A stretch of DNA of 64,000 nucleotides, from contig ML992506.1 in NCBI GenBank assembly GCA_010093995.1, positions 789,196 through 853,195 of the forward strand. The letters are read 5' to 3'. Shown piece by piece: positions 16,179-64,000 of the stretch. The translations under genes and the position numbers were made by a program. Source of the stretch: Elsinoe ampelina. Its lineage: Eukaryota. Numbering within the stretch: the stretch's first letter is position 1; the number at the start of each line of letters is the position of its first letter. The notes beneath the pieces were generated by a model. That model was not told where the DNA came from. It was given only the letters and a program-made list of their open reading frames with translations, and did not search any database.

Positions 16179-16630
16179 GTTGGCGGTTGTGAGTTGATGA
16201 AGAGGTTTGAGCGAAGTCGAAATTTGTAAAGCGTTCGATGGGTCCCGGCGAATTCTGGTGTGCGTGCCAAGGCTGGTGCGGGAAGACGGGATTGGCCGCT
16301 GGTCAGAGCTTCTGGTGGAAACTCGGATGGGCAGGGCAAGCTCTTCCCCCAGCCACGAGTTGTGCTTGCTCGCGCTAGAGTGACTCGGTGTGCTGTTGTG
16401 CTTCCTTGCTTTTGAGGTCATTGACCAGCCATGTAAATCTACAAGCTAAGTTTTGTTCACTGTTCGACTAATTTTTGTATACTGCGATTGTTTTCTTTGG
16501 AATTCCTTTGACGTCGCTTGCTCTGCCGTTACCGTCTTCCTCCTGTAATTCCGAGTAGATCGATCAACACAGCTGGGTCGAGAGGTTTACGAACACTTCA
16601 GGCTTAGTGGGCTTGCATATCTACGGACAA

Positions 16631-17953
16631 ATGCTTGGACGATGGCTCCTTGCCGGACTGCTCGCTCAATCCCGATACATCACAACATATGCATATGCTG
16701 AACCCGAGGGACCCGAGAGCGACGGTCTAAAGACAGACCAGGATACGCTTCAACGACGACACGATGACCATGAACGAATATTACAGAAGCTGCAAAGGCA
16801 GCAACCGATTGGAATGCGAAAGATGAGCGACGATGAGGGCGAGATGTTCTTCCTGGACTACTGGACGTTTGACCCTCTGGGATCAAGAGCAGGAGCTATA
16901 TCAGATGTGGATGGCATGAGCGGCTTGGGCAACAGTACCCATAGCTATCTCAACCCACCGCTGTCGCCGCATAGTCCTTCTTCGGATTCGAGATCTGCTC
17001 TGCGATTGGCAAGGAGTATCTTCAAGCGAGATTTCGAGTGCCCAGTCGGAACGTTTGCTTGCACATCGATCAATCAACCGAACAGCTGCTGCTCATCCGG
17101 CGAGACGTGTATCAGCGTTCAAGATACTGGACTGGGGCCTGTTGGATGCTGTCCTCAAGGTCAGAACTGTGGAGGATCCGTGGCTGGCTGCAACACCGAT
17201 GAGGGATTCTCGAGCTGTCCAGGCAGTCCCAATGGAGGTTGCTGCATACCAGGATACCAGTGTCAAGGAGTTGGCTGCATACGAATAGGAACCGAGATCC
17301 TGACAAGCAGGCCTGTGACCACTGTCAATCCGGCGACAACCTCGCAAGTGACTTCGGTTCAGACAGTGACCACAACAGTGGTGATCAGCCCATCCACAAG
17401 CGCCGCGCCCACTACTGTGACCCAGACGTTGATCATATCTCCATCCTCGACCTCGATACCTTCCACAACAGCTTCAGCCGTGGCACCCGTCCGACCCACT
17501 AGCAACTCGAACACAGGAAGTGCGGCGCCTTCACCATCTACAACTTCTGCACCTGCAAATGCCGGCTGCCCTACTGCCTTCTACAGATGTAGCGCTTACT
17601 ACGTGGGTGGTTGCTGCCGAGTGGGCCGCGATTGCGCCTCAACATCATGTCCAGTTGGATCCTCCACGACTGTCGTTGGAAATGGAGATAGAACAATCGT
17701 CGCTCCAGCCGGCGCAACCACGGCCGCGCTAGTAGGAAACTGTCAATCGGGATGGGCGACCTGCGCTGCGAGTGTCGGAGGCGGTTGTTGTCCTTCCGGA
17801 TTCGTTTGTGGAGCTGCAGACTGTACAGCTACAGCGAGTGGGCAGGCAAACGTTGGGAAAGAGGCACCGAATACAGCAACAAGACTAGCTGGCCTGGAGT
17901 GGACCATTTTCATTCTCGCAGTCGTGTCTGGTGTTGGGATGGTTCTGCTCTAG
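16631..17953 (+). CDS. Secreted Cys-rich, Ser/Thr-rich, probably GPI-anchored cell-surface protein
   Basis: Signal-like N-terminus, dibasic KR before Cys-rich modules (GGCC...C), S/T-rich stalk, hydrophobic C-terminal tail. Confidence 0.8.
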   Translation: MLGRWLLAGLLAQSRYITTYAYAEPEGPESDGLKTDQDTLQRRHDDHERILQKLQRQQPIGMRKMSDDEGEMFFLDYWTFDPLGSRAGAISDVDGMSGLGNSTHSYLNPPLSPHSPSSDSRSALRLARSIFKRDFECPVGTFACTSINQPNSCCSSGETCISVQDTGLGPVGCCPQGQNCGGSVAGCNTDEGFSSCPGSPNGGCCIPGYQCQGVGCIRIGTEILTSRPVTTVNPATTSQVTSVQTVTTTVVISPSTSAAPTTVTQTLIISPSSTSIPSTTASAVAPVRPTSNSNTGSAAPSPSTTSAPANAGCPTAFYRCSAYYVGGCCRVGRDCASTSCPVGSSTTVVGNGDRTIVAPAGATTAALVGNCQSGWATCAASVGGGCCPSGFVCGAADCTATASGQANVGKEAPNTATRLAGLEWTIFILAVVSGVGMVLL

Positions 17954-18784
17954 GAGATTCTGATGGGGATCCACGTTTTATGATACCACGGACCGGCATA
18001 TATCATTCTTAGCAGGCACAATGCATTTTGTACATATCTCATCCTTGTGTTGATTGTGTTGATTGTTTTGGTAGTACCTTGTTCTGGGTATTGTGCATGA
18101 TGGTGAACAGGCACTTTATATGCGGTGGTATCGAGCCGTAGGATGCTACCAGACCCATGTCAGGACAAATTGTTTCAATGCTGGGATCACCCTCATCTGG
18201 TAGTTCATAGCTGTAAGGTACTACCAGAAGCCTGTGAGAAGGATTGAAACGTCTCTTAAATGTGCATCGTTGTGGTAGTCTGTCATTGGTAGGTACTATC
18301 AGGCGCTTCAAGGGCGGACGCAGTGGATAGCATTACGAATGCATTTCTAGTAGGACTTGGAAACAGTATGGATCTGATGGAGAGAGGTGGGGAAGGATTG
18401 CGGAGAATCACATGCATCGGAAATTTGCCCCGCCTTCGCTCGAGGTCAAGGATTCATGGTTGAACTGCGAACACTGCACAGTCTTGCGCTCTGACGAGGC
18501 GACAAGCATGCATGAATACTACCGACAGCCATCGCAAGCGTTACGGACCAAGATAGACGTAGCAAACAGATATAACAAAAAGTCAATGGCATTGTCGAGG
18601 CAAAAGCATAAAATAGAGGTCGCTGAATTGGTGAGCGCTGATTGGCGCAGACGTCATAGTGGGGGGCTTGGCGTGAAGCTCGACCCTCGACTTCGCGAAT
18701 AGTTGACGGCTTCACTCACCGTCGACTTCACATTCTCCTACAACACCTCCCACCACCACCACGCCACCACCTGCTCCTCCAACT

Positions 18785-18932: not shown

Positions 18933-20184
18933 ATGGCACCACAGGGGCAAGACCCCAGCACGCCTGCGGGCGTATCACCGCCGGTTGGCGGTAGCGCGCT
19001 CTTTGGGGATAACTTTATGCGCATCGCGAAAGAATATCGTACCCCCCTCGCCTCGTCAAGCGCATCAGTCCTCTCCACCTTCATCGCAGTAATTTCTACT
19101 TCACTCCACTGGTCTACAGACAGCCACTGATCATGCCTATAGTTCCCGCTAGATTTCGCAAAGAGTCGCATGCAATCGTAGGACATTTTCACATCCCATG
19201 TGAGGATCAGACATTGACCCCTATCGACAGCTATGACACCAAGTTCGTGCCAACCATCACAGAGGCATACCGCGCAGAAGGAATCCGTGGTTTCTGGAGG
19301 GGTAAGATTGGATTACACCAGGTCACGGCGAGCACAATTGGATAACATATTACCAGGAGTACTCCCACCACTCGTTAGCGTCACAGCAGTCCGTACAGCT
19401 TCATTCTCGATCTATCAGATGGCCAAGTACAAGTACGCCGGGTATTTCGAACGCATCACGGGGGAATCTCCACTCGCCATCGCCAACGCCCCCGGGCGTT
19501 ACCCGACAGCTTCAACCATGCTCTGTTTCGGCGCAGCAGGTGCTACAGCAGGATCAATCGTCACGGTCCTAGCATGTCCATTCGAGTTGACCAAGCTACA
19601 TGCTCAGCTGGCGAGTAAGATGGCAAGAGAGCAGGGGAAGAAGGATGTAAACAGCGGTTCCTGGCCACTCGCAAGGCAACTCATCAAGGATCGTGGTTTC
19701 ATGGGGCTCTACAGCGGCTACAGGCTTCACTTGAGTGAGTCACATGACGGACTCGAGTTGAGATCTACTGACAATCACAGTTCGCGACACGATGGGCACA
19801 TGCATCTACTTCACCACTTATGAGACGGCCAAGCAGATCTTCGGCAACGCACGCGGCAACTCACCAACTTCTCCCTTTGCTGTCATGGCTGGCGGTGGTC
19901 TCTGTGGTATCGTCAGTTGGGCTTGCACCTACCCCATCGACGTCAGCAAGACTGTCTACCAGAAGGCACTCCTGTCAAACCCGCAAGAGGAGATTGAGAA
20001 GCCAAAGATCAAATTCTTCCAGCAAGGTTCTTACAGAGGTCAGCACCTCCGTCTATGATCCTCGTACCCACGCTAATCGTTATCAGGTCTCGGCGTCTCG
20101 GTGGCCAGGTCATGCTTGATCAACATGATTTTCTTCAGCATGTTCGAGGTGATCAAGAAGAGGATCAATGACTTCACGGTCTGA
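18933..20184 (+). CDS. Mitochondrial carrier family (SLC25) protein, multi-exon
   Basis: Three PxD/ExxK signatures (FPLDFAKSR, CPFELTKLH, YPIDVSKTV), EGIRGFWRG, GFMGLYSG. About five short GT-AG introns. Confidence 0.9.
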
Positions 20185-32694: not shown

Positions 32695-35172
32695 TCACTC
32701 TCCCTCCTGGTGTTCATAAATCATATCAACCTGTTTCACGGGATGCAGCAACATGGTAGGCAAACACATCCTACCTTCTCCGGCTTTCTCCTCTTGCTCA
32801 CCCCCATCGCCATCGACCTTGTACCCCAACCACCGCTTCCACAAATTACCCGGGAACCCAGCGTGGTAGTACCAGGTCGTCCCAAGGAAGTTGTGCTGTC
32901 TTTCGTCTGAAAAGACACTGGTCCTCGCACCTCCAGCTGCGCCGTTCCGTCCATTATTGAAGATCGCAGCAAGGTACGATGTCGGCCAGCGACGGTCGAT
33001 GTAGACTGGATGAGGAGCGTACACCGCTTTTAGCCCGTGATGCAAGGCGCAACTGCCCGGCCACATTTCGCTGAACATGGAATGGCGCTTGAGGGCTGTC
33101 TCACGATGCATCACATCCAAAAGACGTCGACTGAGTCGAGATGCGGTGACGATTGCGGTCCGTCGCGGTGGAAAGCCCCCGGTGGTGTTGTAGCCGGTGA
33201 CATCCTCGTTCAGGATCCAATTCGTCTTGTCAGGGTCGAACAGCGGATTGAGCGTGATAAAGTCGGCGTCTTCGCCAACTCCCCAGCTGTACTTGTCCTC
33301 GGCATACTCGGTAGGTGGCTTCGGATCTTTCTCGACCTCAAAATGCTCTTCATCATTCTGTGGCCTCAGCGGACCCCAGATTGGGGTTTCAGGCCTGTTG
33401 TCTTCAGCATCATCAGGGTGCTTCGGATCCTTGGCCATCTTGTGATACATATTCCCTCGGTTCCCGGTTCCATGCTCGGTTTGCACGCGGACCATTTGCG
33501 AGAAGTCCTCCCAGGACCCGTGTTCTGTAGGGATGTAAAAGCGGCTGTTTCGCTCCCAAAGTCCTTTCCGAGGCTGCTTCTTCGCCCACGATGCCAACTT
33601 CTCGAACAGCTCGTAGTAGTGGCCGACGTATCGAGCGTCCATCTCCCAGTGCCAGAAGTAGTCGTATTCGGGGTGGTTGTGTGCAAAGTACTGCACGGGC
33701 ATGTAAGTCGATCGATAGACACCATGGACAGGCAGATCGCGGTACATGGACTCTGCGATGCCACCATAGATCAAACCCATCTGCCTCTCAGACCAAAGCG
33801 TGCCCATGCCGCGAAATTCTTGCGGAAGAGCATTATCCACTACTCGCTGATACATCTCGTCGTCGGCCCAAACTTGCAGGTCGTTGTCCTTGACATGTAT
33901 CAGAAAGTGTACCGTATACTCCCCACTAGATTGCAGCGAAAGCTCATTTATCAGCGCCCTTAGGTATATGATATCCTCCTCATCATACTGGTAATCGAAC
34001 CACGTTCGAATCAACACAGCCGTCCGTGGCAATCTCCTGCTGTCATCTGTTGTCGCGCCACCCACGTCTCGCTCCTCGATCTGCTCTTTCTCCAGCCCCC
34101 GATCATCGATTCTCTTCGGTGGGGCCTCAGCAGCCGGCTTCTTCTTCTCCGGCAACTCCCTCGCTGGGCTTCCCTGTGGCATAGTCGAGAAGAAATGGTT
34201 CCTGCTGTTCGAGACCTGCTTTAATCGATTCCTGTTCTTGTAGGCACAACGCGCCTGCGCATCAGCCCAATCCACCTTGCGGTAGTCGATCTCCATCCTG
34301 TCGCCCCAGACGCCCTTCATCGCCTCGTCTCTTCCTTCACCCTCCATTCCTGCCCCTGTCCCGCCATACTTCCTACTGTATCCAAACCCATACGGTCCCA
34401 GTCTCCCATACCGGTCAAAGCAACCCGTGTTCTGCAGCCCAAACATCTCATAGCTCCCCATGACGGGATCCGGCATCCCTTTCGGCACACCATGATGTAT
34501 CTGCAACGGCGGCACCGCGACCTCATCGTCCGCGTCCAAAAAGCACTGCTTCCTCCCTGTCCCCCTCCCCTGCTCGACCGGAACAAATGCATCCGTCTGC
34601 GCCTCCGCCCCTCTCTTCTCCTTCCTCTGACCCTCCTCCTTTCCCCCCTTCTCCCTCCCCCTCCCCTTCCCCTCCTCTCCCTCCCCCTCCACCACCTTCT
34701 TCCCCTCCCTATCCTTCTTCCCCCTCCCAATCTCCAACTCCCTCTCCTTATCAGGGTACTCCGCCCTCATCCCCTCCCTCCCCACCAACGTCCTCACCCC
34801 GCCATGATACCTCTTCAAAAAAGGAAACTCCTCCCACGCAGGCGGCGGCGGCGGCGGCCTCTCCTTCAACCCCAACCTGATCTCCGCTTCCGACAAACTC
34901 TTCTGCCTGACGAGGAACACGACGAAGAACACCAGCGACGACGCCAGCAGCAGGGTGAAGTACCGGCTGAACCGTCGCCGTCGCGTGAGGGACGGGTACG
35001 AGACGGAGAGGAAGCGTTTGCGTCGTTGTTGGTATGGGGGCGAGGCGAGGAGGCCGATGTGTGAGGAGGGAGGTGAGAAGGAGGAGGAGCTGGAGGAGGT
35101 GGAGGAGCGGCCGCGGGTGGTGGGGAGGATGGTGCGGCCGTCGAGGGCGGTGTAGGTGTCGTGTTTGCCCAT
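32695..35172 (-). CDS. DUF3405-family type II membrane protein
   Basis: Single N-terminal TM, CFDRYGRLGPYG, RTAVLIR, LRALINELSL, WHWEMDARYVGH, RLSRRLL, LLHPVK. The ATG at 35172 is preferred over the longer ORF start. Confidence 0.8.
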   Translation of the reverse strand: MGKHDTYTALDGRTILPTTRGRSSTSSSSSSFSPPSSHIGLLASPPYQQRRKRFLSVSYPSLTRRRRFSRYFTLLLASSLVFFVVFLVRQKSLSEAEIRLGLKERPPPPPPAWEEFPFLKRYHGGVRTLVGREGMRAEYPDKERELEIGRGKKDREGKKVVEGEGEEGKGRGREKGGKEEGQRKEKRGAEAQTDAFVPVEQGRGTGRKQCFLDADDEVAVPPLQIHHGVPKGMPDPVMGSYEMFGLQNTGCFDRYGRLGPYGFGYSRKYGGTGAGMEGEGRDEAMKGVWGDRMEIDYRKVDWADAQARCAYKNRNRLKQVSNSRNHFFSTMPQGSPARELPEKKKPAAEAPPKRIDDRGLEKEQIEERDVGGATTDDSRRLPRTAVLIRTWFDYQYDEEDIIYLRALINELSLQSSGEYTVHFLIHVKDNDLQVWADDEMYQRVVDNALPQEFRGMGTLWSERQMGLIYGGIAESMYRDLPVHGVYRSTYMPVQYFAHNHPEYDYFWHWEMDARYVGHYYELFEKLASWAKKQPRKGLWERNSRFYIPTEHGSWEDFSQMVRVQTEHGTGNRGNMYHKMAKDPKHPDDAEDNRPETPIWGPLRPQNDEEHFEVEKDPKPPTEYAEDKYSWGVGEDADFITLNPLFDPDKTNWILNEDVTGYNTTGGFPPRRTAIVTASRLSRRLLDVMHRETALKRHSMFSEMWPGSCALHHGLKAVYAPHPVYIDRRWPTSYLAAIFNNGRNGAAGGARTSVFSDERQHNFLGTTWYYHAGFPGNLWKRWLGYKVDGDGGEQEEKAGEGRMCLPTMLLHPVKQVDMIYEHQEGE

Positions 35173-35581
35173 GGTGAGCGAGGGGTTGGGGGAGCTAGGG
35201 TGTGGGTGGTAGGCGCATGGGGTGGTTGTGGTGGTGTTGGTTTTGAGTGAAGTTGGGGTTTGTTGCGCCTCGGGGTTGGTCAACGGTTTATTAGTAAGAT
35301 GTGCTGGCACGAGATCGTCCGGGGGTGATTGAAAGATACACGAACTCTGAAGGTGGAGAGGGAAATATTGAGCTTCAATGACGGCAGTGTTGGTTCTTGG
35401 TTTCTTGGGATCCTTCTCGTTGCCGTGGTGAGAAGTTGTGGTCGATCATCAGAGGGCTCCACTTTTTTTTGGTCCGCGGTGCCATGTGTTGCAACATGCG
35501 AACGAGGGACACGTGCGCGTATTGAACAATGTGTTTATCTATTCTATCATTTCCACCAGACTCTCTTCGTCAACAAAAGGT

Positions 35582-45828: not shown

Positions 45829-46957
45829 ATGTCAACGGAGCTCAGCGAAGACGAGATCACCGAGATCTATGACTTCGCCGTCCAGCTCGGCAAAGATGCA
45901 GGCCAAATGCTGCTGGACGGCATGCTCGCCCGCATGTCAGGAGGCGTTACCCACGCCAACATAGAAAAAGACAGCTCGGTGGACATAGTAACAAAGACTG
46001 ACGAAGGTAACGCCACTCGTCTTCCTCGAACACCATCCCCCAGCTCACCACTCCCAGACGTCGAATCCTTCATCCACACCTCCATCACCAAACGCTTCCC
46101 CACCCACGCGTAAGCCCCCTCCTCCCCTCGCCGACCCAACCTCTTCTAATTTTGCCCCCCCCCCCAGCTTCATCGGCGAAGAATCCTACTCCAAAGGCAC
46201 CTCGAAACACTACCTCCTCACCCCGTCCCCGACCTGGATCATCGACCCCCTCGACGGCACCGTCAACTACACCCACCTGTACCCCACCTTCTGCGTGTCC
46301 ATCGGCTTCTGCGTCTCCTCCCGCCCCTACATCGGCGTCATCAACGCGCCCTTCCTCTCCCAATTCTGGTCCTCCTGCCACGGGCGCGGGGCCTGGTTCA
46401 CCACCCCCTCCCTCGGACCCACGCCCGTGCGTCTGCCGCTCGTCCGCGACCCCATCCCCCCGCTCCCCGAGCAGGCGCCCAAGGGGTGTGTGTTTAGCTG
46501 CGAGTGGGGGAAGGATCGTCGCGATCGCGCCGGCGGGAATATGTACCGCAAAGTGGAGACGTTTCTCAATATGGCGGCGGAGATTGGCGGGCGGGGGGGT
46601 AAAGGGGGGATGGTGCATGGGGTGCGGAGTATAGGGAGTGCGACGCTGGATTTGGCGTACGTGACGCTGGGAGGGGTGGATGTGTGGGTTGAGGGAGGGT
46701 GTTGGGAGTGGGATGTTTGTGCGGCGTGGGCGGTGCTGGTGGAGGCTGGGGGGTTGGTGACGACGCCGAGTCCGCCGGAGGGAGGGGATGTGGAGACGGC
46801 GGAGATAGGGGAGGGGAGGTTGGGGAGTCGGTTGTATTTGGCGGTGAGGGCGGTGGGGGACAAGGAAGGGGTGAGTGGGAGGGTGCAGCAGGAGAGGTTG
46901 GTGAGGGAGGTGTGGAGGAGGGTGGTGCCATTGGATTATACGAGGCCGGGGTTATAG
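45829..46957 (+). CDS. qutG: Inositol-monophosphatase-family protein of the qut cluster
   Basis: DIVTKTD, FIGEES, TWIIDPLDGTVNYTH, RSIGSATLD, WEWDVCA. Introns about 46007-46058 and 46110-46167. Confidence 0.93.
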
Positions 46958-58190: not shown

Positions 58191-59420
58191 TCACCGACTT
58201 TCGCTGTAATCATTCAGAGCTACGCAGACTGCGCCTCTATGGTGGCCGTTGTATTGTCTGATGACACTCTTGCTGCTCAGCTCCCACAGACGAGCGTAAT
58301 GGTCGCTACAAGCTGTGACAAGGTATGCCGAGTCGGCTGAAAAGGCACAATCCCACACCCATCGCTGATGTCCGTCCAGCTCTTGCTCGAGCTTGAAAGG
58401 GCTATCGGCGCCGGGATCGGTGTTGCGCGACTTCTTCTCCTCTTCTTCAGGCGATAGGACCGGCGGGTTCAGGGCTGCTGGATTGCTGAGATCGACTCCC
58501 CAAATGCGAGCTGTGTGGTCGGCGGAGCATGTCGCAAGATGGCGAACGTCGGGTGAGAGCAGAACGCGAGTGATGTATGTCTGATGTGCTCGGAACTTCG
58601 TCACTGGGACCAGGGTAGTAACATCCTTTGCCGTGATCATGCGCCACACGTAGACAGCACCGTGCATGCTGTTGGATACAGCGGCGCATAGTAGGCTCCC
58701 ATCTGATGCCACCGTGACAGAAGCGACCGATTTGTCTTCCTCCGGAATGAGCTGGTGACTGCACTTGTTTTCTGACAAATCCCAGATGCGCACGTTGCCG
58801 CCACGGTCGCAAGAAATGAGCTCGCCCTGATTCGGGTGTATCACCACATCATTGACCGGAACGCCGTGAGAGTAGTTGCGCTGCACATTGCCAGTCCGAG
58901 TGTCCCAGATCTTGACGGTGCCATCTTCAGAAGACGTCACCATCCATTTACCCTCACAGTGGAACTGTACACCGGTGATGTTGTTGGTGTGGCCTTCGAA
59001 GGTGAGGACTGCGGTCGGATTTGTGGACTTGATATCGTAGAGCTTGACAGTATGGTGACCAGCTGCTGCTAGAAATCGCTTGTCGGGAGAGATACATAGA
59101 CGGTTGACTTGGCTGTCGGGGTGAGGAATGGTGCGAGAGCAGATACCCGAGAGGGCTTCCCAAAACCTGTTCAGTTCAGCGCCTGCACGAGTCTTGACCC
59201 TTGGAGACATTTTGATGATAATTGAAGACCCCAGGCACCATCGATTGATGGATATGAGGACTGATCAATGAAGGTTCACTCCCGAGGTGAAACGCCAGGC
59301 TCAAGATTCAACGTACCTGATTGTGTGGTCATAACCAGCTTGACAGTGTCAGCTCCACGGTCCTTATGAGCTTCTTCTCCACCAGCGGGGTGACTTACCG
59401 GTACACAGAATGACGCTCAT
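58191..59420 (-). CDS. LST8: TOR complex subunit Lst8 (WD40)
   Basis: [68 protein letters not shown]. Exons 59420-59399, 59338-59317, 59166-58191. Confidence 0.96.
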
Positions 59421-61565
59421 GTCGCGCGCCTGTGGTGCTGCAACAGCGGCTGGTCACTGAGTGATGTTATATTTCAGCTCATGTGCTCTCGGACTCCTTG
59501 CTCTTCCCAACCGTTCGGAGTCCACGTGGACTAGATCCGGTCTGTGCAAAAAGGGTCTTGTTTGTCCGATGGCCACGCTCGTCTCTGACTTTGACGTCCG
59601 TTGCAGGCGGCTGAAGCGAAGCAAAATGAACCCTGTGATTGGCAACCTTCGTAACGCAAGTGTACCTTGGCGGCGCGTGCCTTGCGGGGATACGCGACTT
59701 CGTCTTTCGCCGACGATAGAATCCTCTTTGATAAAATATTAACAACAAGGTCAACCTTTCTGTAATGACGTTCGTTGTAGTGGATGTGCTAAAATGGAAC
59801 GATGCGGTGCGAATGAAGTGCAGAAATGTCGCTGAAGTCGGATTGCGCCCGCACGAGAGCTTGGCAAAACGCTCGAGAGGTCCCCGAAGTCCAACCAGTC
59901 GGGATGCGTCTATGGTCGGCTGGGAAGGGGGAATAGAAGGTGCTTGCCAAAGGTCAGGATCTGTAAGCATGTGTTAGTCGATTCAGCGGATCACTTGCCC
60001 TATTTTCACATGAAGGACGAGCTGTCTGGCTCCAAGTCGTTTCCCAGCATGTGGCAATCTCCCGACATCACCCCAAGTCATGGAGCGACGTTGGACATTG
60101 TGCTTAGTTATATAGTTAGCATCAGATGCGAATGGGGCCCTCATGCCATTCAGCTATGCTGTCATACGTACATGTTACGCTCAAGGAAACGATACTTTGT
60201 CTTCGAGGCTCGAAACGCTGGACAATCTTGGGTTCAGCGATGGACGCCAGCTAATGTTGTACTTGGTAGGCGAACGCTATGTGCTAGCTGCTGTATGCCA
60301 TTCGAAGTGTTATGAGGAAGAGTAGTCTACGGCGAAGGCGAGAAGCGGTCGCTTTCGCGTCCCCAGAGAATCACGTTCGCGTCGACGCGTCTGCTCAGCA
60401 ACTCGGAGAGCGACACCAAGGATCCACTCTGTCAGCCCCCGACTACGGCCATGCCTCGACACTGTTAGCTCTGGGAAAGAAGGCCGGTGCTGCCAGCTGA
60501 CCTCGTCGAGTCAACCAATAACTTCCCGATCCCGTCGAGTCTCGCAGCGGGAATTCATTCAGCACGGCGGCCACGGCCTGCCACGTACGCTATCCGACCA
60601 GCTACGAATCTTTGCTACAGGAGGGTATCCTGGCTTTCGATAGTGGTGACGCATAAGAGAAGTCTACTGGCATCGCGGTCGATATCAAATGCTTATTCAG
60701 GCACCTGTGTGGAAGATGCCTGGAAGAAGCATGCTGAAATTCATTCATCTGGAGCTTGGACCCCATTTCCGCACGAGGCTGAGCTGCGCGTGACCCACAC
60801 ACATCGGAAATGAACAAACAAGATCGACAACCTTGTTCATAGCACGTCGTCGCCATTATCGACCATCTAGTTGACCACAGTCAAGCACTGCATCGTCTAC
60901 CCAAGATCATCTCGTCGCTGGCTACATTCTCCGACTTTTCTCGTTCTGAACGGACTACCTTTGGCAGAATGGCAAATCTAGAGGCCATGTCGCCCAAGAG
61001 ACAGCACGCAGCAGACCCTGCTCCATTGCCTTTAAGCTTGATCTTAGGCTTGATCTGAGATCCATTCGCGTCTATTTTGACAGCCGATGAGTGGTTCGCC
61101 CGCTCCCCTGGGTCCATGACAGTATGTATGCCATCCATCACTCTGAGACATCACTCTGAAACTCTCTGCTGCAGCTATAGCAGAGCTCATCAGAGTTGGA
61201 TGAATTCTTGCCAAAGACCCATGCAAGCTTCTATGAGTGCTGTTCTTTTGCCAGATGCCCAAATGGGTAATTCTGAGAGTAGGTCATGGTATATCTACAC
61301 AGGTAAGCCCAGCAACCCCCCTCTTCTTACACCACATCGTGATCACCCAACTACGATTGCATACAGCATCGAAGTTTTCACACCGTCTTCCGGCACTTTT
61401 TGCATTGCTCTTTGCATTGTATATTGCCTCAAGCATACCAACACAACCACCACGCCATCTTCTATCACGACTACCCCATCACCTTCTCCCACGCCAACCA
61501 CCTCACGTTCTCCGACACCTACCACACCTCCTCATCTCCCTCCAACCTCTCCTCTCCGTCCAACA

Positions 61566-63347
61566 ATGGACTCCTCCGCCCCCACCGCCAACTTTGGGAT
61601 AGGAGCATCGTCTGGTAGTTCTTCAAATATAAACTACCAGAACTTTGATGGAACCCAGGCCCCACTCCAACCCGACAACTACCAGTATGTTGACTCTGGT
61701 AGTTTCCAAGGTCAGGCTGCTCCAGCAGCCGTCCTTCCTCACCATCCCTTTCCCTACCAGCATTTTGCTGGTAGTCACAACTCTCCGGCTGTTGCGCCCG
61801 ACTCTTTTGCCTGGCATGCCACCTACCAGCAACGTGCTGGTAGTTACAACCCTCCGGTAGCCTCTATCACCCCGCCCTCCTGGCAGAACGCCACCTACCA
61901 GCATCAAAACGCTGGTAGTTACAACTCTGCCTCCGTGGCAACCCTTTCCCCCTTCGCCCTTCCTGTCAACTACCAGCAGCAATCTACTGGTAGTGATCAA
62001 GCCCCTGTGGCACCCCTGTTCCCCCTTCCCCTCCCCGCCAACTACCAGCAGCAATCCACTGGTAGTGATCAAGCTCCTGTGGCACCCCTGTTCCCCCTTC
62101 CCCTCCCCGCCAACTACCAGCAGCAACCTGGTAGTGGTCCCTTCCCTGCTCCTGCTGGTCAAGCACTCCAGCCAGCCATGCCCTTCGCCAACTACCAGCA
62201 TGGCATGGTCCCCCAGCAGGAGCAGGGGTCTCAAGTCCCGGAGGCGCCCCGTCGACCCACCACCAACAAGCCCAAGGCCACAGCGTGCACCTACGTCATG
62301 GCCAGGCACAGAGGTCGCCCTGGGGAACCGACGGAGAAGGTGCCCTACAAGGACGCCAACGGGGGCATCAAGGCCGGCGACCACCCCGCTGCTAACGCCG
62401 ACTGCGCTCCTCCCCGCGTAAGAAGGCCCAAGCAGCCGAGGGGCGAGAGGCCAGAGGGAGTGACCAGATCCGGGGCCCGTAGGAACCCCAGGGGAAGAGG
62501 ACGGACGTCGGCCACCGCCGTGGGCCAGCTCGAGGCTCTGCTTGCGCCTGCGGTGGAGCCCCAGCTCCAGCCCGCCGTACAAGCCCAGCCGGAGCAAGCC
62601 ACAGCGTCCCAGCCGCAGCCAGGTCCCGAGGCCTCGTCGGATCGAGCCGGCAACTACAACCTTCTGCTCGCCCTGGGGTCCTGCCCAGGCATCAACGTCA
62701 ACCCCGCGCTGCTGGCCGAGTACGCGCCGAGGCCAAACCCGCCCGCCGAGCCCCAGGTATGGCACCAGCCCACGGCGCCCATACCAGCCCAGGAGGCACC
62801 ACCGGTCCCGCAAGCCGGGCCAGACCCCACCCCTGTCCCTGGTAGTTTCGACCCCTCGAGCACTACCAGCTTTGACCTGCCTGCCCCTCCCCCCGCCGAG
62901 CCCGTGGACTACTTCGCGGACTTCGTCATGCCCGACCCCGAAGCGGAACTGGCGAATGCTGGACCTGGCTGGTATTTGCAAACTACCAGCCAGCCAGAGG
63001 CAGTGGAGGGGTTCAATACCCAGGTCGAAGAGGCTGGTAGTACTTGGCCGCCGCATCTCACCAGTCCGCCAGGGCTAGAGGGGTACCCCCAACTCCAGGT
63101 CGAGCAGGCTGGTAGTTCCTTCTCGCTGGAACCTACCAGCCAGCTAGAGACAACGGATTCGGCCAGTTACTCGGTCGAGGCGGCTGGTAGTTTCCCCCAG
63201 GAGTCGGACCCGGCGCCGCAACAGCAGTTCGTGCCGGAATGGGACCACCACCCGGAGGACGACTACCTGGACAACGGGCTGGCATCCCTAGAGGAAGTGG
63301 ACAAGATGTTCTCGGATCTCCCGAGGAAGGAGCCGGAGGAGAAGTAG
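61566..63347 (+). CDS. Orphan intronless Pro/Gln/Ala-rich repeat protein
   Basis: 593-aa ORF from ACAATGG. N-terminal ~24-aa repeats (xYQQ..xGS...VAP), basic central patch, C-terminal VExAGS repeats, acidic tail. No recognisable domain. Confidence 0.6.
   Translation: MDSSAPTANFGIGASSGSSSNINYQNFDGTQAPLQPDNYQYVDSGSFQGQAAPAAVLPHHPFPYQHFAGSHNSPAVAPDSFAWHATYQQRAGSYNPPVASITPPSWQNATYQHQNAGSYNSASVATLSPFALPVNYQQQSTGSDQAPVAPLFPLPLPANYQQQSTGSDQAPVAPLFPLPLPANYQQQPGSGPFPAPAGQALQPAMPFANYQHGMVPQQEQGSQVPEAPRRPTTNKPKATACTYVMARHRGRPGEPTEKVPYKDANGGIKAGDHPAANADCAPPRVRRPKQPRGERPEGVTRSGARRNPRGRGRTSATAVGQLEALLAPAVEPQLQPAVQAQPEQATASQPQPGPEASSDRAGNYNLLLALGSCPGINVNPALLAEYAPRPNPPAEPQVWHQPTAPIPAQEAPPVPQAGPDPTPVPGSFDPSSTTSFDLPAPPPAEPVDYFADFVMPDPEAELANAGPGWYLQTTSQPEAVEGFNTQVEEAGSTWPPHLTSPPGLEGYPQLQVEQAGSSFSLEPTSQLETTDSASYSVEAAGSFPQESDPAPQQQFVPEWDHHPEDDYLDNGLASLEEVDKMFSDLPRKEPEEK
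61611..63191. repeat. Array of CTACCAG/CTGGTAG inverted-repeat hairpins, including a near-perfect 72-bp tandem duplication (61968-62111)
   Basis: 12 CTGGTAG and 12 CTACCAG counted by eye, mostly paired into 8-10 bp stems. Period 69-77 nt in 61677-62135 and 75 nt in 63021-63191. Confidence 0.9.
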
Positions 63348-63394
63348 ATAGATTGCGTGTCTGTCTAAATCGATACCCTGGTTCCTCCCACTTG

Positions 63395-64000
63395 TCATCC
63401 CAAAATGCCCAGCGCCTCCCAGCTGTTGACGATTGGTACGTCCCTCTTGACGCCAGCCTCCTGTGCATGAGCTTCATCTCCCATCTCAATGTCCTGTGAT
63501 GGTCTGGTGCTCTTGCCCCATTTGTCGACTTCCCATACGACTTCCACTGCTTGCTTCGCGCCACGGACCACTTCCCCCATCAGGGAGCCCACTCCTTTCG
63601 CGCGTTCCCTCATCCCTCTCCGCATCAACCCCTCGACTAGCCTCCCGACCTCCTCTCCCATCCCGTTGAGTCGGTCTACCAATCTTCCGATCGAGGCAAC
63701 GAGGTACTCTTCTTCGTACACGCTGCCTTTCTTGCCGCGCGCTTTCTTGCGCTCTTCCCTGCGACGGTTCTTGGACGAGCGTCGCGTGGTGTTGGTCGCC
63801 AGAGTGGCGTCGGTGCGGTGGGTGTAGCGTGTCATGAAGGTACCGGCTGAGGTGCTCATGGAGGGGGCGAGGGAGATGTCGTCTGGTATGTCGGGGTTGG
63901 TGGCTGAGGGGTGGGAGTCGTAGAAGGAGACTAAAAGGATCAGTGATGCACCATTAAGAAAGACGAAGGGGACGGAGGGGATAAGAATGCAGCGAGGTGG
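63395..64000 (-). CDS. ELP1: Elongator complex protein 1, 3' end (partial, continues beyond window)
   Basis: DIPDDISLAP..STSAGTFMTRYT..RRSSKNRRREERKKARGKKGSVYEEEYLV, the Iki3/Elp1 basic C-terminal signature. Intron acceptor at 63931. Confidence 0.93.
   Translation of the reverse strand, partial: PPRCILIPSVPFVFLNGASLILLVSFYDSHPSATNPDIPDDISLAPSMSTSAGTFMTRYTHRTDATLATNTTRRSSKNRRREERKKARGKKGSVYEEEYLVASIGRLVDRLNGMGEEVGRLVEGLMRRGMRERAKGVGSLMGEVVRGAKQAVEVVWEVDKWGKSTRPSQDIEMGDEAHAQEAGVKRDVPIVNSWEALGILG

Follow-up and report, generated by a model that had tools for sequence, protein, structure and literature searches.

A 64,000-nucleotide (nt) stretch of the genome of the fungus Elsinoe ampelina (contig ML992506.1 of assembly GCA_010093995.1, positions 789,196 to 853,195; hereafter the window) carries near its end a gene in which two short words, CTGGTAG and its reverse complement CTACCAG, recur in pairs that can form hairpins. 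The gene is a single-exon coding sequence (CDS) of 1,782 nt on the plus strand, 61566..63347, that runs as an unbroken open reading frame (ORF) from an ATG at 61566 to a stop codon ending at 63347. It encodes a repeat protein of 593 amino acids (aa), in which a Pfam search found no domain. The composition of the protein, high in P, A, Q, S and G, suggests that it is probably largely disordered. Homologues were sought in near-length and shorter-length classes and in a full HMMER pass over 1.84 billion representatives. The closest and only homologue in these searches is the hypothetical protein KVT40_000758 (P0002) of Elsinoe batatas, of 583 aa (BLASTP, 53% identity, 98% query coverage). An Atlas search with the protein gave no usable match, and a protein-guided scan of metagenome contigs returned no relative of it. 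A preliminary description of the locus had called the ORF an orphan, which is nearly right, with one homologue in one other species; as judged from these searches, the gene is fungal and lineage-restricted. The ORF is taken as coding because the window and E. batatas proteins can be aligned end to end with in-frame gaps only.

The block best conserved in E. batatas is the basic middle region of the protein, encoded at 62240-62520 (PRRPTTNK ... EKVPYKDANGGIKAG ... KQPRGE). It includes an RGRP motif that resembles an AT-hook core; the E. batatas counterpart reads RGGP. An antisense ORF of 477 aa, 61623..63056 on the minus strand, spans most of the gene in what hand arithmetic gives as the codon-aligned antisense frame. 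It is probably a by-product of codon usage, since stops in that frame arise only from the rare sense codons TTA, CTA and TCA.

Hairpins in the coding sequence

Each heptamer occurs exactly 12 times within the gene, as the preliminary description had counted. Across the window CTGGTAG occurs 18 times and CTACCAG 20 times, which leaves 6 and 8 copies in the other 62 kb and no enrichment there relative to the mean of 3.9 for heptamers of the same composition. CTGGTAG followed after 3-30 nt by CTACCAG matches the window 4 times, with 0.00 matches expected from 100 dinucleotide shuffles, and the opposite order matches 7 times, with 0.02 expected from dinucleotide shuffles. Every stem that the preliminary description had named exists where it was placed. 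When folded locally, 10 of these 11 stems gave free energies of -10.5 to -27.6 kcal/mol (z -2.65 to -7.01). The remaining stem, at 63032-63066 and folded as 63027-63071, had been called weaker, and indeed 112 of 200 shuffles folded equally well (z +0.27). Perfect stems are 7-11 base pairs (bp) long, the longest arm measuring 13 nt and containing one mismatch; the pairing in the hairpins V3 and V4 described below extends over 16-21 nt and is imperfect. The full conserved word exceeds the heptamer and is about GCTGGTAGTT / AACTACCAGC.

The hairpins fall into two blocks. In the 5' block a unit of 24 codons, YQxxx[SATP]GSx...N, recurs with a period of 69-75 nt, in agreement with the recurrence of about 72 nt described earlier; Tandem Repeats Finder reports a 72-nt period for the youngest units only, 61889-62126. 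The first hairpin, H0 (61611..61641), has the form TCTGGTAGTT-11-AACTACCAGA, where the number is the loop length, with 10 bp and the arms in the order GS then NYQ (-12.5 kcal/mol, z -5.49). H1 (61677..61704) is AACTACCAG-10-CTGGTAGTT, and H2 (61754..61774, z -7.01) and H3 (61823..61843) are both CTACCAGCA-3-TGCTGGTAG, all three with 9 bp. H4 (61882..61931) combines an 8-bp core at 61895-61918 with an outer 6-bp helix, GGCAGA/TCTGCC (-23.4 kcal/mol, z -6.53). H5 (61969..61994), ACTACCAGCAG-4-CTACTGGTAGT, has 11-nt arms with one mismatch, and H6 (62041..62066), ACTACCAG-10-CTGGTAGT, lies within a recent, near-identical copy of the H5 unit. H7 (62113..62135) is ACTACCAG-7-CTGGTAGT. A solo arm, AACTACCAGC (62190..62199, read as NYQH), has no CTGGTAG within 30 nt; the GS that lies 11 codons 3' of it is written GGG TCT.

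The 3' block repeats a unit of 25 codons, ..VE.AGS......TSQ.., every 75 nt. V0 (62839..62869) is CTGGTAGT-15-ACTACCAG, with an arm read as TTS (-15.9 kcal/mol). In V1 (62958..62993, -18.7 kcal/mol) the homologous arm has decayed to GCTGGACCT (62958-62966), and a new arm, CTGGCTGGTATTT (62965-62977, read as GWY), pairs with AACTACCAGCCAG (62981-62993) over 13 nt with one mismatch. V2 (63032..63066) is the weak stem mentioned above, in which GGCTGGTAGT is intact and its partner has decayed to CTCACCAGT. V3 (63100..63148) consists of TCGAGCAGGCTGGTAG and CTACCAGCCAGCTAGA, 16-nt arms that are 88% complementary, with an arm read as PTS (-27.6 kcal/mol, z -4.33). V4 (63175..63195) is the last GCTGGTAGTT arm, and pairs with 63128-63148 over 21 nt at 81% (-32 kcal/mol, z -3.51). 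There are three arm architectures in the gene: CTACCAG first, with loops of 3-10 nt; CTGGTAG first, with loops of 11-17 nt; and V1. CTGGTAG is read as xCT GGT AGx in all 12 copies. The preliminary description had pointed out that one arm is used in two frames, and CTACCAG is read as xxC TAC CAG in 9 copies and as xCT ACC AGx in 3. The units are arranged head to tail, have lengths that are multiples of three and are in frame, and the ORF is unbroken, as in a coding minisatellite.

An assembly artefact had been named as one way in which the array might be spurious. Contigs from four other sequencing runs in three studies show 0 differences over 61660-61960, 62146-62363, 62333-62706 and 62606-63500, and this agreement shows that the hairpin array did not arise in assembly. 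The covered parts do not extend to 61968-62109, where the units are near-identical. Sequencing run X3, which is RNA only by guess, yielded a 4,525-nt contig at depth 80 that extends from 62884 beyond 63500, and contigs at depth 3.5-8.3 over the remaining gene. Should this run prove to be RNA, the 3' hairpin block may be covered in antisense by the transcript of the convergent gene on the minus strand, whose stop lies at 63395.

A second array in intergenic DNA

New here is a three-unit array of the same hairpin, with a 75-nt period, in intergenic DNA at 18.07-18.30 kb. This array, locus X (18068..18302), lies 115-350 nt past the stop of a plus-strand ORF, 16607..17953, ahead of the next plus-strand ORF, whose ATG is near 18934, and about 43 kb from the gene. 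Its middle unit, X2 (18196-18228), is TCTGGTAGT-15-ACTACCAGA, the sole exact hairpin outside the gene, and its arms are identical to those of H0 over 9 bp. The unit X3, 75 nt downstream of X2 and in register with it, has GTGGTAG at 18272 and CTATCAG at 18296. The unit X1, 75 nt upstream, retains an exact CTACCAG at 18146, together with GTGGTAT at 18124, two bases off register. Solo TGGTAG words begin at 18069 (TGGTAGT) and 18287. The spacings of 51 and 24 nt and the 75-nt period reproduce the geometry of the 3' block of the gene.

Several comparisons bear on whether locus X could be a chance occurrence. No exact hairpin arose in 300 Markov simulations, and the chance probabilities are about 3e-4 for a second unit in register and 6e-5 for the mirror arm. 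Hairpins with up to one mismatch per arm are not unusual outside the gene, with 14 found against a control mean of 6.05 and a control maximum of 19. The spacers of locus X are at background identity to each other and to the units of the gene (28-37%, against 25%). A minus-strand ORF of 90 aa overlies the locus; locus X is treated as non-coding because this ORF starts with TTG and no homologue of it was found. On that basis, the same pair of words, with the same period, is present where no protein is encoded.

Constraint at the nucleotide level

Within the gene, the arms are conserved at positions where the peptide would permit change. The comparison took units U1-U5 and U7 and left out U6, which is a recent copy of U5. 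Where two units encode the same residue, their codons match in 63 of 63 cases in the arms and in 24 of 61 in the spacers; third positions are identical in 75 of 75 and 100 of 274 cases, respectively. Since spacer alignment is uncertain, the figure of 24 of 61 may partly reflect misalignment; deep divergence of the spacers, unlike the arms, holds regardless. The invariant codons of the arms end in T, which runs counter to usage: only 75 of 521 non-arm codons have T as the third base, and in four other long ORFs of the window (unverified gene models) usage is 0.22 for GGT, 0.12 for AGT and about 0.23 for NCT. The GS of the arm is written GGT AGT in 12 of 12 copies, and the only two other GS pairs in the protein are GGG TCT and GGG TCC. 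Any of S, A, T and P may precede GS, but the codon at that place is NCT in all 12 copies. As read from these codons, the boundary of conservation is the edge of the heptamer and not that of the codon. The E. batatas protein likewise has S, A, T or P before GS at 11 of 11 repeat positions, and three differences between orthologous positions are first-base changes. In addition to the two frames of CTACCAG, the replacement arm of V1, 10 nt downstream of the decayed one, is read in a third, and its pairing with AACTACCAGCCAG extends into flank bases outside the usual arm.

Codon-shuffled controls, a check proposed in the preliminary description, lose the stems. Synonymous codons were shuffled within blocks, because a shuffle of the whole gene is confounded by regional GC content (z -2.7 for the control block). 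For the 5' block, the minimum free energy had a z of -7.5, and 0 of 100 shuffles matched its stability; the block has 11 stems, and the shuffles averaged 1.6. For the 3' block the corresponding z was -3.3, again with 0 of 100 as stable, and for the middle block, which is free of heptamers, it was -1.2, with 12 of 100 as stable.

The sequence of the stems indicates how two demands could hold every base of the arms in place. Inside the gene, the synonymous sites of each arm face non-synonymous sites of the other: the final T of xCT is opposite the A of CAG, that of GGT is opposite the A of TAC, and the final C of TAC is matched by a G of GGT. If the peptide (YQ/GS or TS/GS) is selected and pairing is demanded as well, all seven pairs would be locked, because these sites interlock. 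YQ and GS are retained in the E. batatas orthologue. Selection on the peptide alone would leave synonymous sites free, which is not what was found in the arms or in the NCT codons beneath a variable residue. Taken together, the comparisons within the window and with one orthologous protein support the view that the nucleic acid, and not only the peptide, is subject to a constraint or a generating process. The preliminary description had placed it on the nucleic acid, not the peptide. The first half of that claim is borne out by the synonymous invariance, the NCT codons, the use of different frames, the turnover of the V1 arm and locus X. "Not the peptide" is too strong, since all 12 copies of CTGGTAG share a single frame, E. 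batatas has retained YQ and GS, and the two levels interlock.

Possible origins and meaning of the arrays

The explanation that we prefer, tentatively, is a selected, sequence-specific stem-loop element that has been spread by tandem duplication and that most likely acts in transcripts. The element would combine a word of 8-10 nt (about GCTGGTAGTT) with its reverse complement, AACTACCAGC, 3-17 nt away, an arrangement that allows a stem-loop of 7-13 bp. Tandem duplication of units of 72 and 75 nt (24 and 25 codons) would have multiplied it, giving the two arrays in this CDS, whose protein is lineage-restricted and probably disordered, and also the array at 18.07-18.30 kb, which is non-coding and has partly decayed. 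The demand for pairing would be purifying selection on the stem-loop, most likely in the transcript, that is, in the mRNA of the gene and in the presumed 3' untranslated region (UTR) of the gene ending at 17953. There the stem-loop might serve as a repeated cis-element, for example as a platform for binding that controls what becomes of the mRNA or how it is translated. Selection on the particular word is favoured because only such selection explains identical arms at an unlinked, non-coding locus. The arms are invariant, including at synonymous sites and in different reading frames, while loops and spacers are free to vary, and both blocks are more stable than protein-preserving controls, as expected of structured RNA.

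A number of observations weigh against this explanation. There is no covariation: the pairing of flanks is not better for true than for swapped partners (2.50 vs 1.87 of 5, and 2.00 vs 1.83 of 5). By hand tally, 100 flank positions include 45 Watson-Crick pairs and only 5 G-U pairs. Two silent changes would preserve pairing through G-U, namely TAC to TAT and a switch of the preceding codon from a C to a T ending, and each is absent from 9 of 9 copies. Their absence is easier to reconcile with strict complementarity of DNA or with a fixed word than with generic RNA stability. The loops vary, whereas RNA stem-loops bound by protein usually have conserved ones, and solo arms are present at 62190, 63183 and 18069. 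The minus strand of the gene folds as well as the plus strand or better, and the asymmetry between strands follows base composition; at locus X, the plus-strand folding advantage is compositional, and X1 and X3 fold no better than shuffles (z -1.79 and -1.19). Finally, Rfam has no family that reaches its gathering score for the hairpin regions.

The most serious rival holds that the arrays are functionless quasi-palindromes that maintain themselves: a unit with a short inverted repeat would have expanded into a coding minisatellite, in which template switching during replication (quasi-palindrome correction) re-copies one arm from the other and selection on YQ and GS discards corrections made in the wrong direction, so that the non-preferred T-ending codons are restored time after time. 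Template switching has been described as producing perfect stems in one event and as helping to maintain them (PMC8794818). It would account for the complementarity of the coding arrays being strictly Watson-Crick, with few G-U pairs and no covariation, and for V1, which resembles a fresh reverse-complement copy of AACTACCAGCCAG down to its atypical flank bases and whose partner arm is missing in E. batatas. The partial decay of two of three units at locus X, where no peptide anchors the arms, also agrees with it. However, template switching keeps complementarity and not one particular word, and the arms of X2 equal those of H0 despite surroundings at background identity. Moreover, keeping 36 synonymous T's in 12 copies would, in our judgement, need correction to outpace point mutation on stems of 7-10 bp. 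We regard this explanation as unlikely, though worth serious attention. The arrays could instead be sites in double-stranded DNA, a word of 8-10 bp read in either orientation by a DNA-binding protein, with the hairpin potential a by-product of opposite sites duplicated together. A word that is invariant and does not covary, the avoidance of G-U-compatible changes, the solo words at 62190, 63183, 18069 and 18287, the resemblance of V1 to binding-site turnover and the presence of the word in intergenic DNA between two genes all point in this direction. Independent monomers would nevertheless leave unexplained why opposite words lie within 24 nt in three architectures, and the start-to-start spacings of 14, 17, 22 and 24 nt lack the helical phase expected of a dimer. 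We know of no precedent for twenty-four binding sites inside one coding sequence, and the portions of the literature covered by a search for the motif words held only unrelated uses of them. We consider such a site array rather improbable.

Two further explanations appear much weaker. A tiny, perhaps formerly mobile, palindromic element, or the remnants of terminal inverted repeats (TIRs), might have landed in the gene and at locus X and then been tandemly amplified, with the protein repeat being in part its translation. Identical arms at two unlinked loci with unrelated interiors and flanks, and arms that are conserved while interiors vary, are in keeping with this. Miniature inverted-repeat transposable elements (MITEs) have TIRs, target-site duplications and many dispersed copies; inverted arms are present here, and there is one further locus in 61 kb. 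On the other side, flanks read by eye around X2 and H0 show no target-site duplication, the heptamers are not enriched in the 61 kb outside the gene and locus X, units of 21-31 nt are far below the sizes of known mobile elements, and the shared 75-nt period argues for duplication rather than insertion. We therefore hold an insertion origin to be very unlikely. The arrays might also be an ordinary peptide repeat, in which YQ and GS are selected, the codons descend from one ancestral unit and reverse complementarity is coincidental. Retention of YQ and GS in E. batatas and the single frame of CTGGTAG suit such a repeat, and the shuffles (1.6 stems per 612 nt) imply that a 72-nt unit has a chance of about 1 in 5 of holding some stem of at least 7 bp, which duplication would multiply. 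The idea is strained by arms whose synonymous sites are invariant next to saturated spacers (63/63 vs 24/61), by NCT codons under a variable residue, by the other arm in a second frame and V1 in a third, and by the same hairpin array in non-coding DNA, and we give it hardly any credence.

The arrays share features with several known systems. Intragenic (coding) minisatellites are known in fungal proteins, and the gene resembles them in its in-frame tandem units of 72 and 75 nt, its low-complexity protein and a number and content of units that differ between species. It departs from them in that each unit holds constant only two short words, complementary to one another, even at synonymous sites and in different frames, and in that the same words are also arrayed outside any gene. 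Hairpins attributed to template switching are similar in having perfect reverse-complement repeats a few bases apart, with V1 as an apparent one-step copy that includes the flanks; the work that describes them concerned RNA genes and stems of differing sequence (PMC8794818). Here at least 15 stems, divided between two loci, share one identical word, and copying inside a hairpin does not account for this. Bacterial repetitive extragenic palindromic (REP) sequences and bacterial interspersed mosaic elements (BIMEs) are short palindromic words, both dispersed and clustered in arrays. The likeness lies in a palindromic word, its arrays and a locus downstream of a gene; the differences are that Elsinoe is a eukaryote, that most copies are inside a CDS and that the loops are not conserved. 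We know of no dedicated transposase, and none was seen in the 64-kb window. It is conceivable, though we think it doubtful, that sequence-specific stem-loop repeats are dispersed as a family in the genomes of Elsinoe-type fungi, as a eukaryotic equivalent of the bacterial REP arrays. Selection would keep the family in coding and non-coding transcripts alike, and within a CDS it would dictate the motifs YQ, GS and TTS, which would then be translations of the element and not its cause.

Short cis-acting RNA words inside ORFs are known from the hexamer clusters of the fission-yeast determinant of selective removal (DSR) and from the ASH1 zipcodes of budding yeast. These also are nucleic-acid signals repeated in a coding region regardless of frame; the words described here differ in being inverted pairs able to form stems. 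Introner-like elements occur in Dothideomycetes and are likewise short, structured sequences multiplied inside genes of this fungal class. In contrast to them, the units here are translated and not spliced, the ORF runs through them and the contigs are collinear with the genome. A spliceosomal intron or introner was rejected as a candidate, with the ORF and its orthologue reading through the units and no joints in the contigs; GT..AG spans between arms are 59 or 62 nt by hand arithmetic, not a multiple of three. A small-RNA precursor, one option raised in the preliminary description, is unlikely: perfect stems of 7-11 bp fall short of the stem of about 20 bp or more of a miRNA-like precursor, and the only Rfam match, mir-24, scored 23.9 bits against a gathering threshold of 50.

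A scan of metagenome contigs for a DNA pattern of two hairpins returned three loci (L001-L003), all unrelated. L001 and L003 (1001-1136 in each, GC 0.69) contain two 72-nt units in tandem that look bacterial; CTGGTAGTGAC...GTCACTACCAG closes each of them and encloses two further hairpins, and no Rfam family matched at E 0.01 or better. In the parts of the literature on fungal minisatellites with hairpins, Elsinoe genomes and introner-like elements that were covered, nothing bore on the array. ACCAGC resembles an Ace2/Swi5-type site, CACTACCAG resembles CACTA-type termini, and GGTAGT / ACTACC resemble the U2 branch-site helix; all three are short partial matches that we presume to be expected by chance. 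Just 5' of the ATG of the gene lies a CT-rich tract, 61400-61565, with tandem periods of 18 and 24 nt, which weakly matches other CT-rich stretches of the window (46838-46927 and 35035-35174); such tracts are probably pyrimidine-rich promoter or 5' UTR sequence. Further upstream, a minus-strand ORF of 339 aa at 58191-59210 encodes WD40 repeats and has, by eye only, an LST8-type look.

If template switching maintains the arms, the gene would be an unusually clear example of hairpin maintenance within a coding sequence. If the arms are instead selected as nucleic acid, the gene would illustrate cleanly, in a natural setting, how two codes can interlock at every base, with the silent sites of each arm fixed by the amino acids of the other. 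An RNA or DNA element would then shape the repeat motif of a protein, and the arrays would point to an undescribed, dispersed family of stem-loops in a group of crop-scab fungi.

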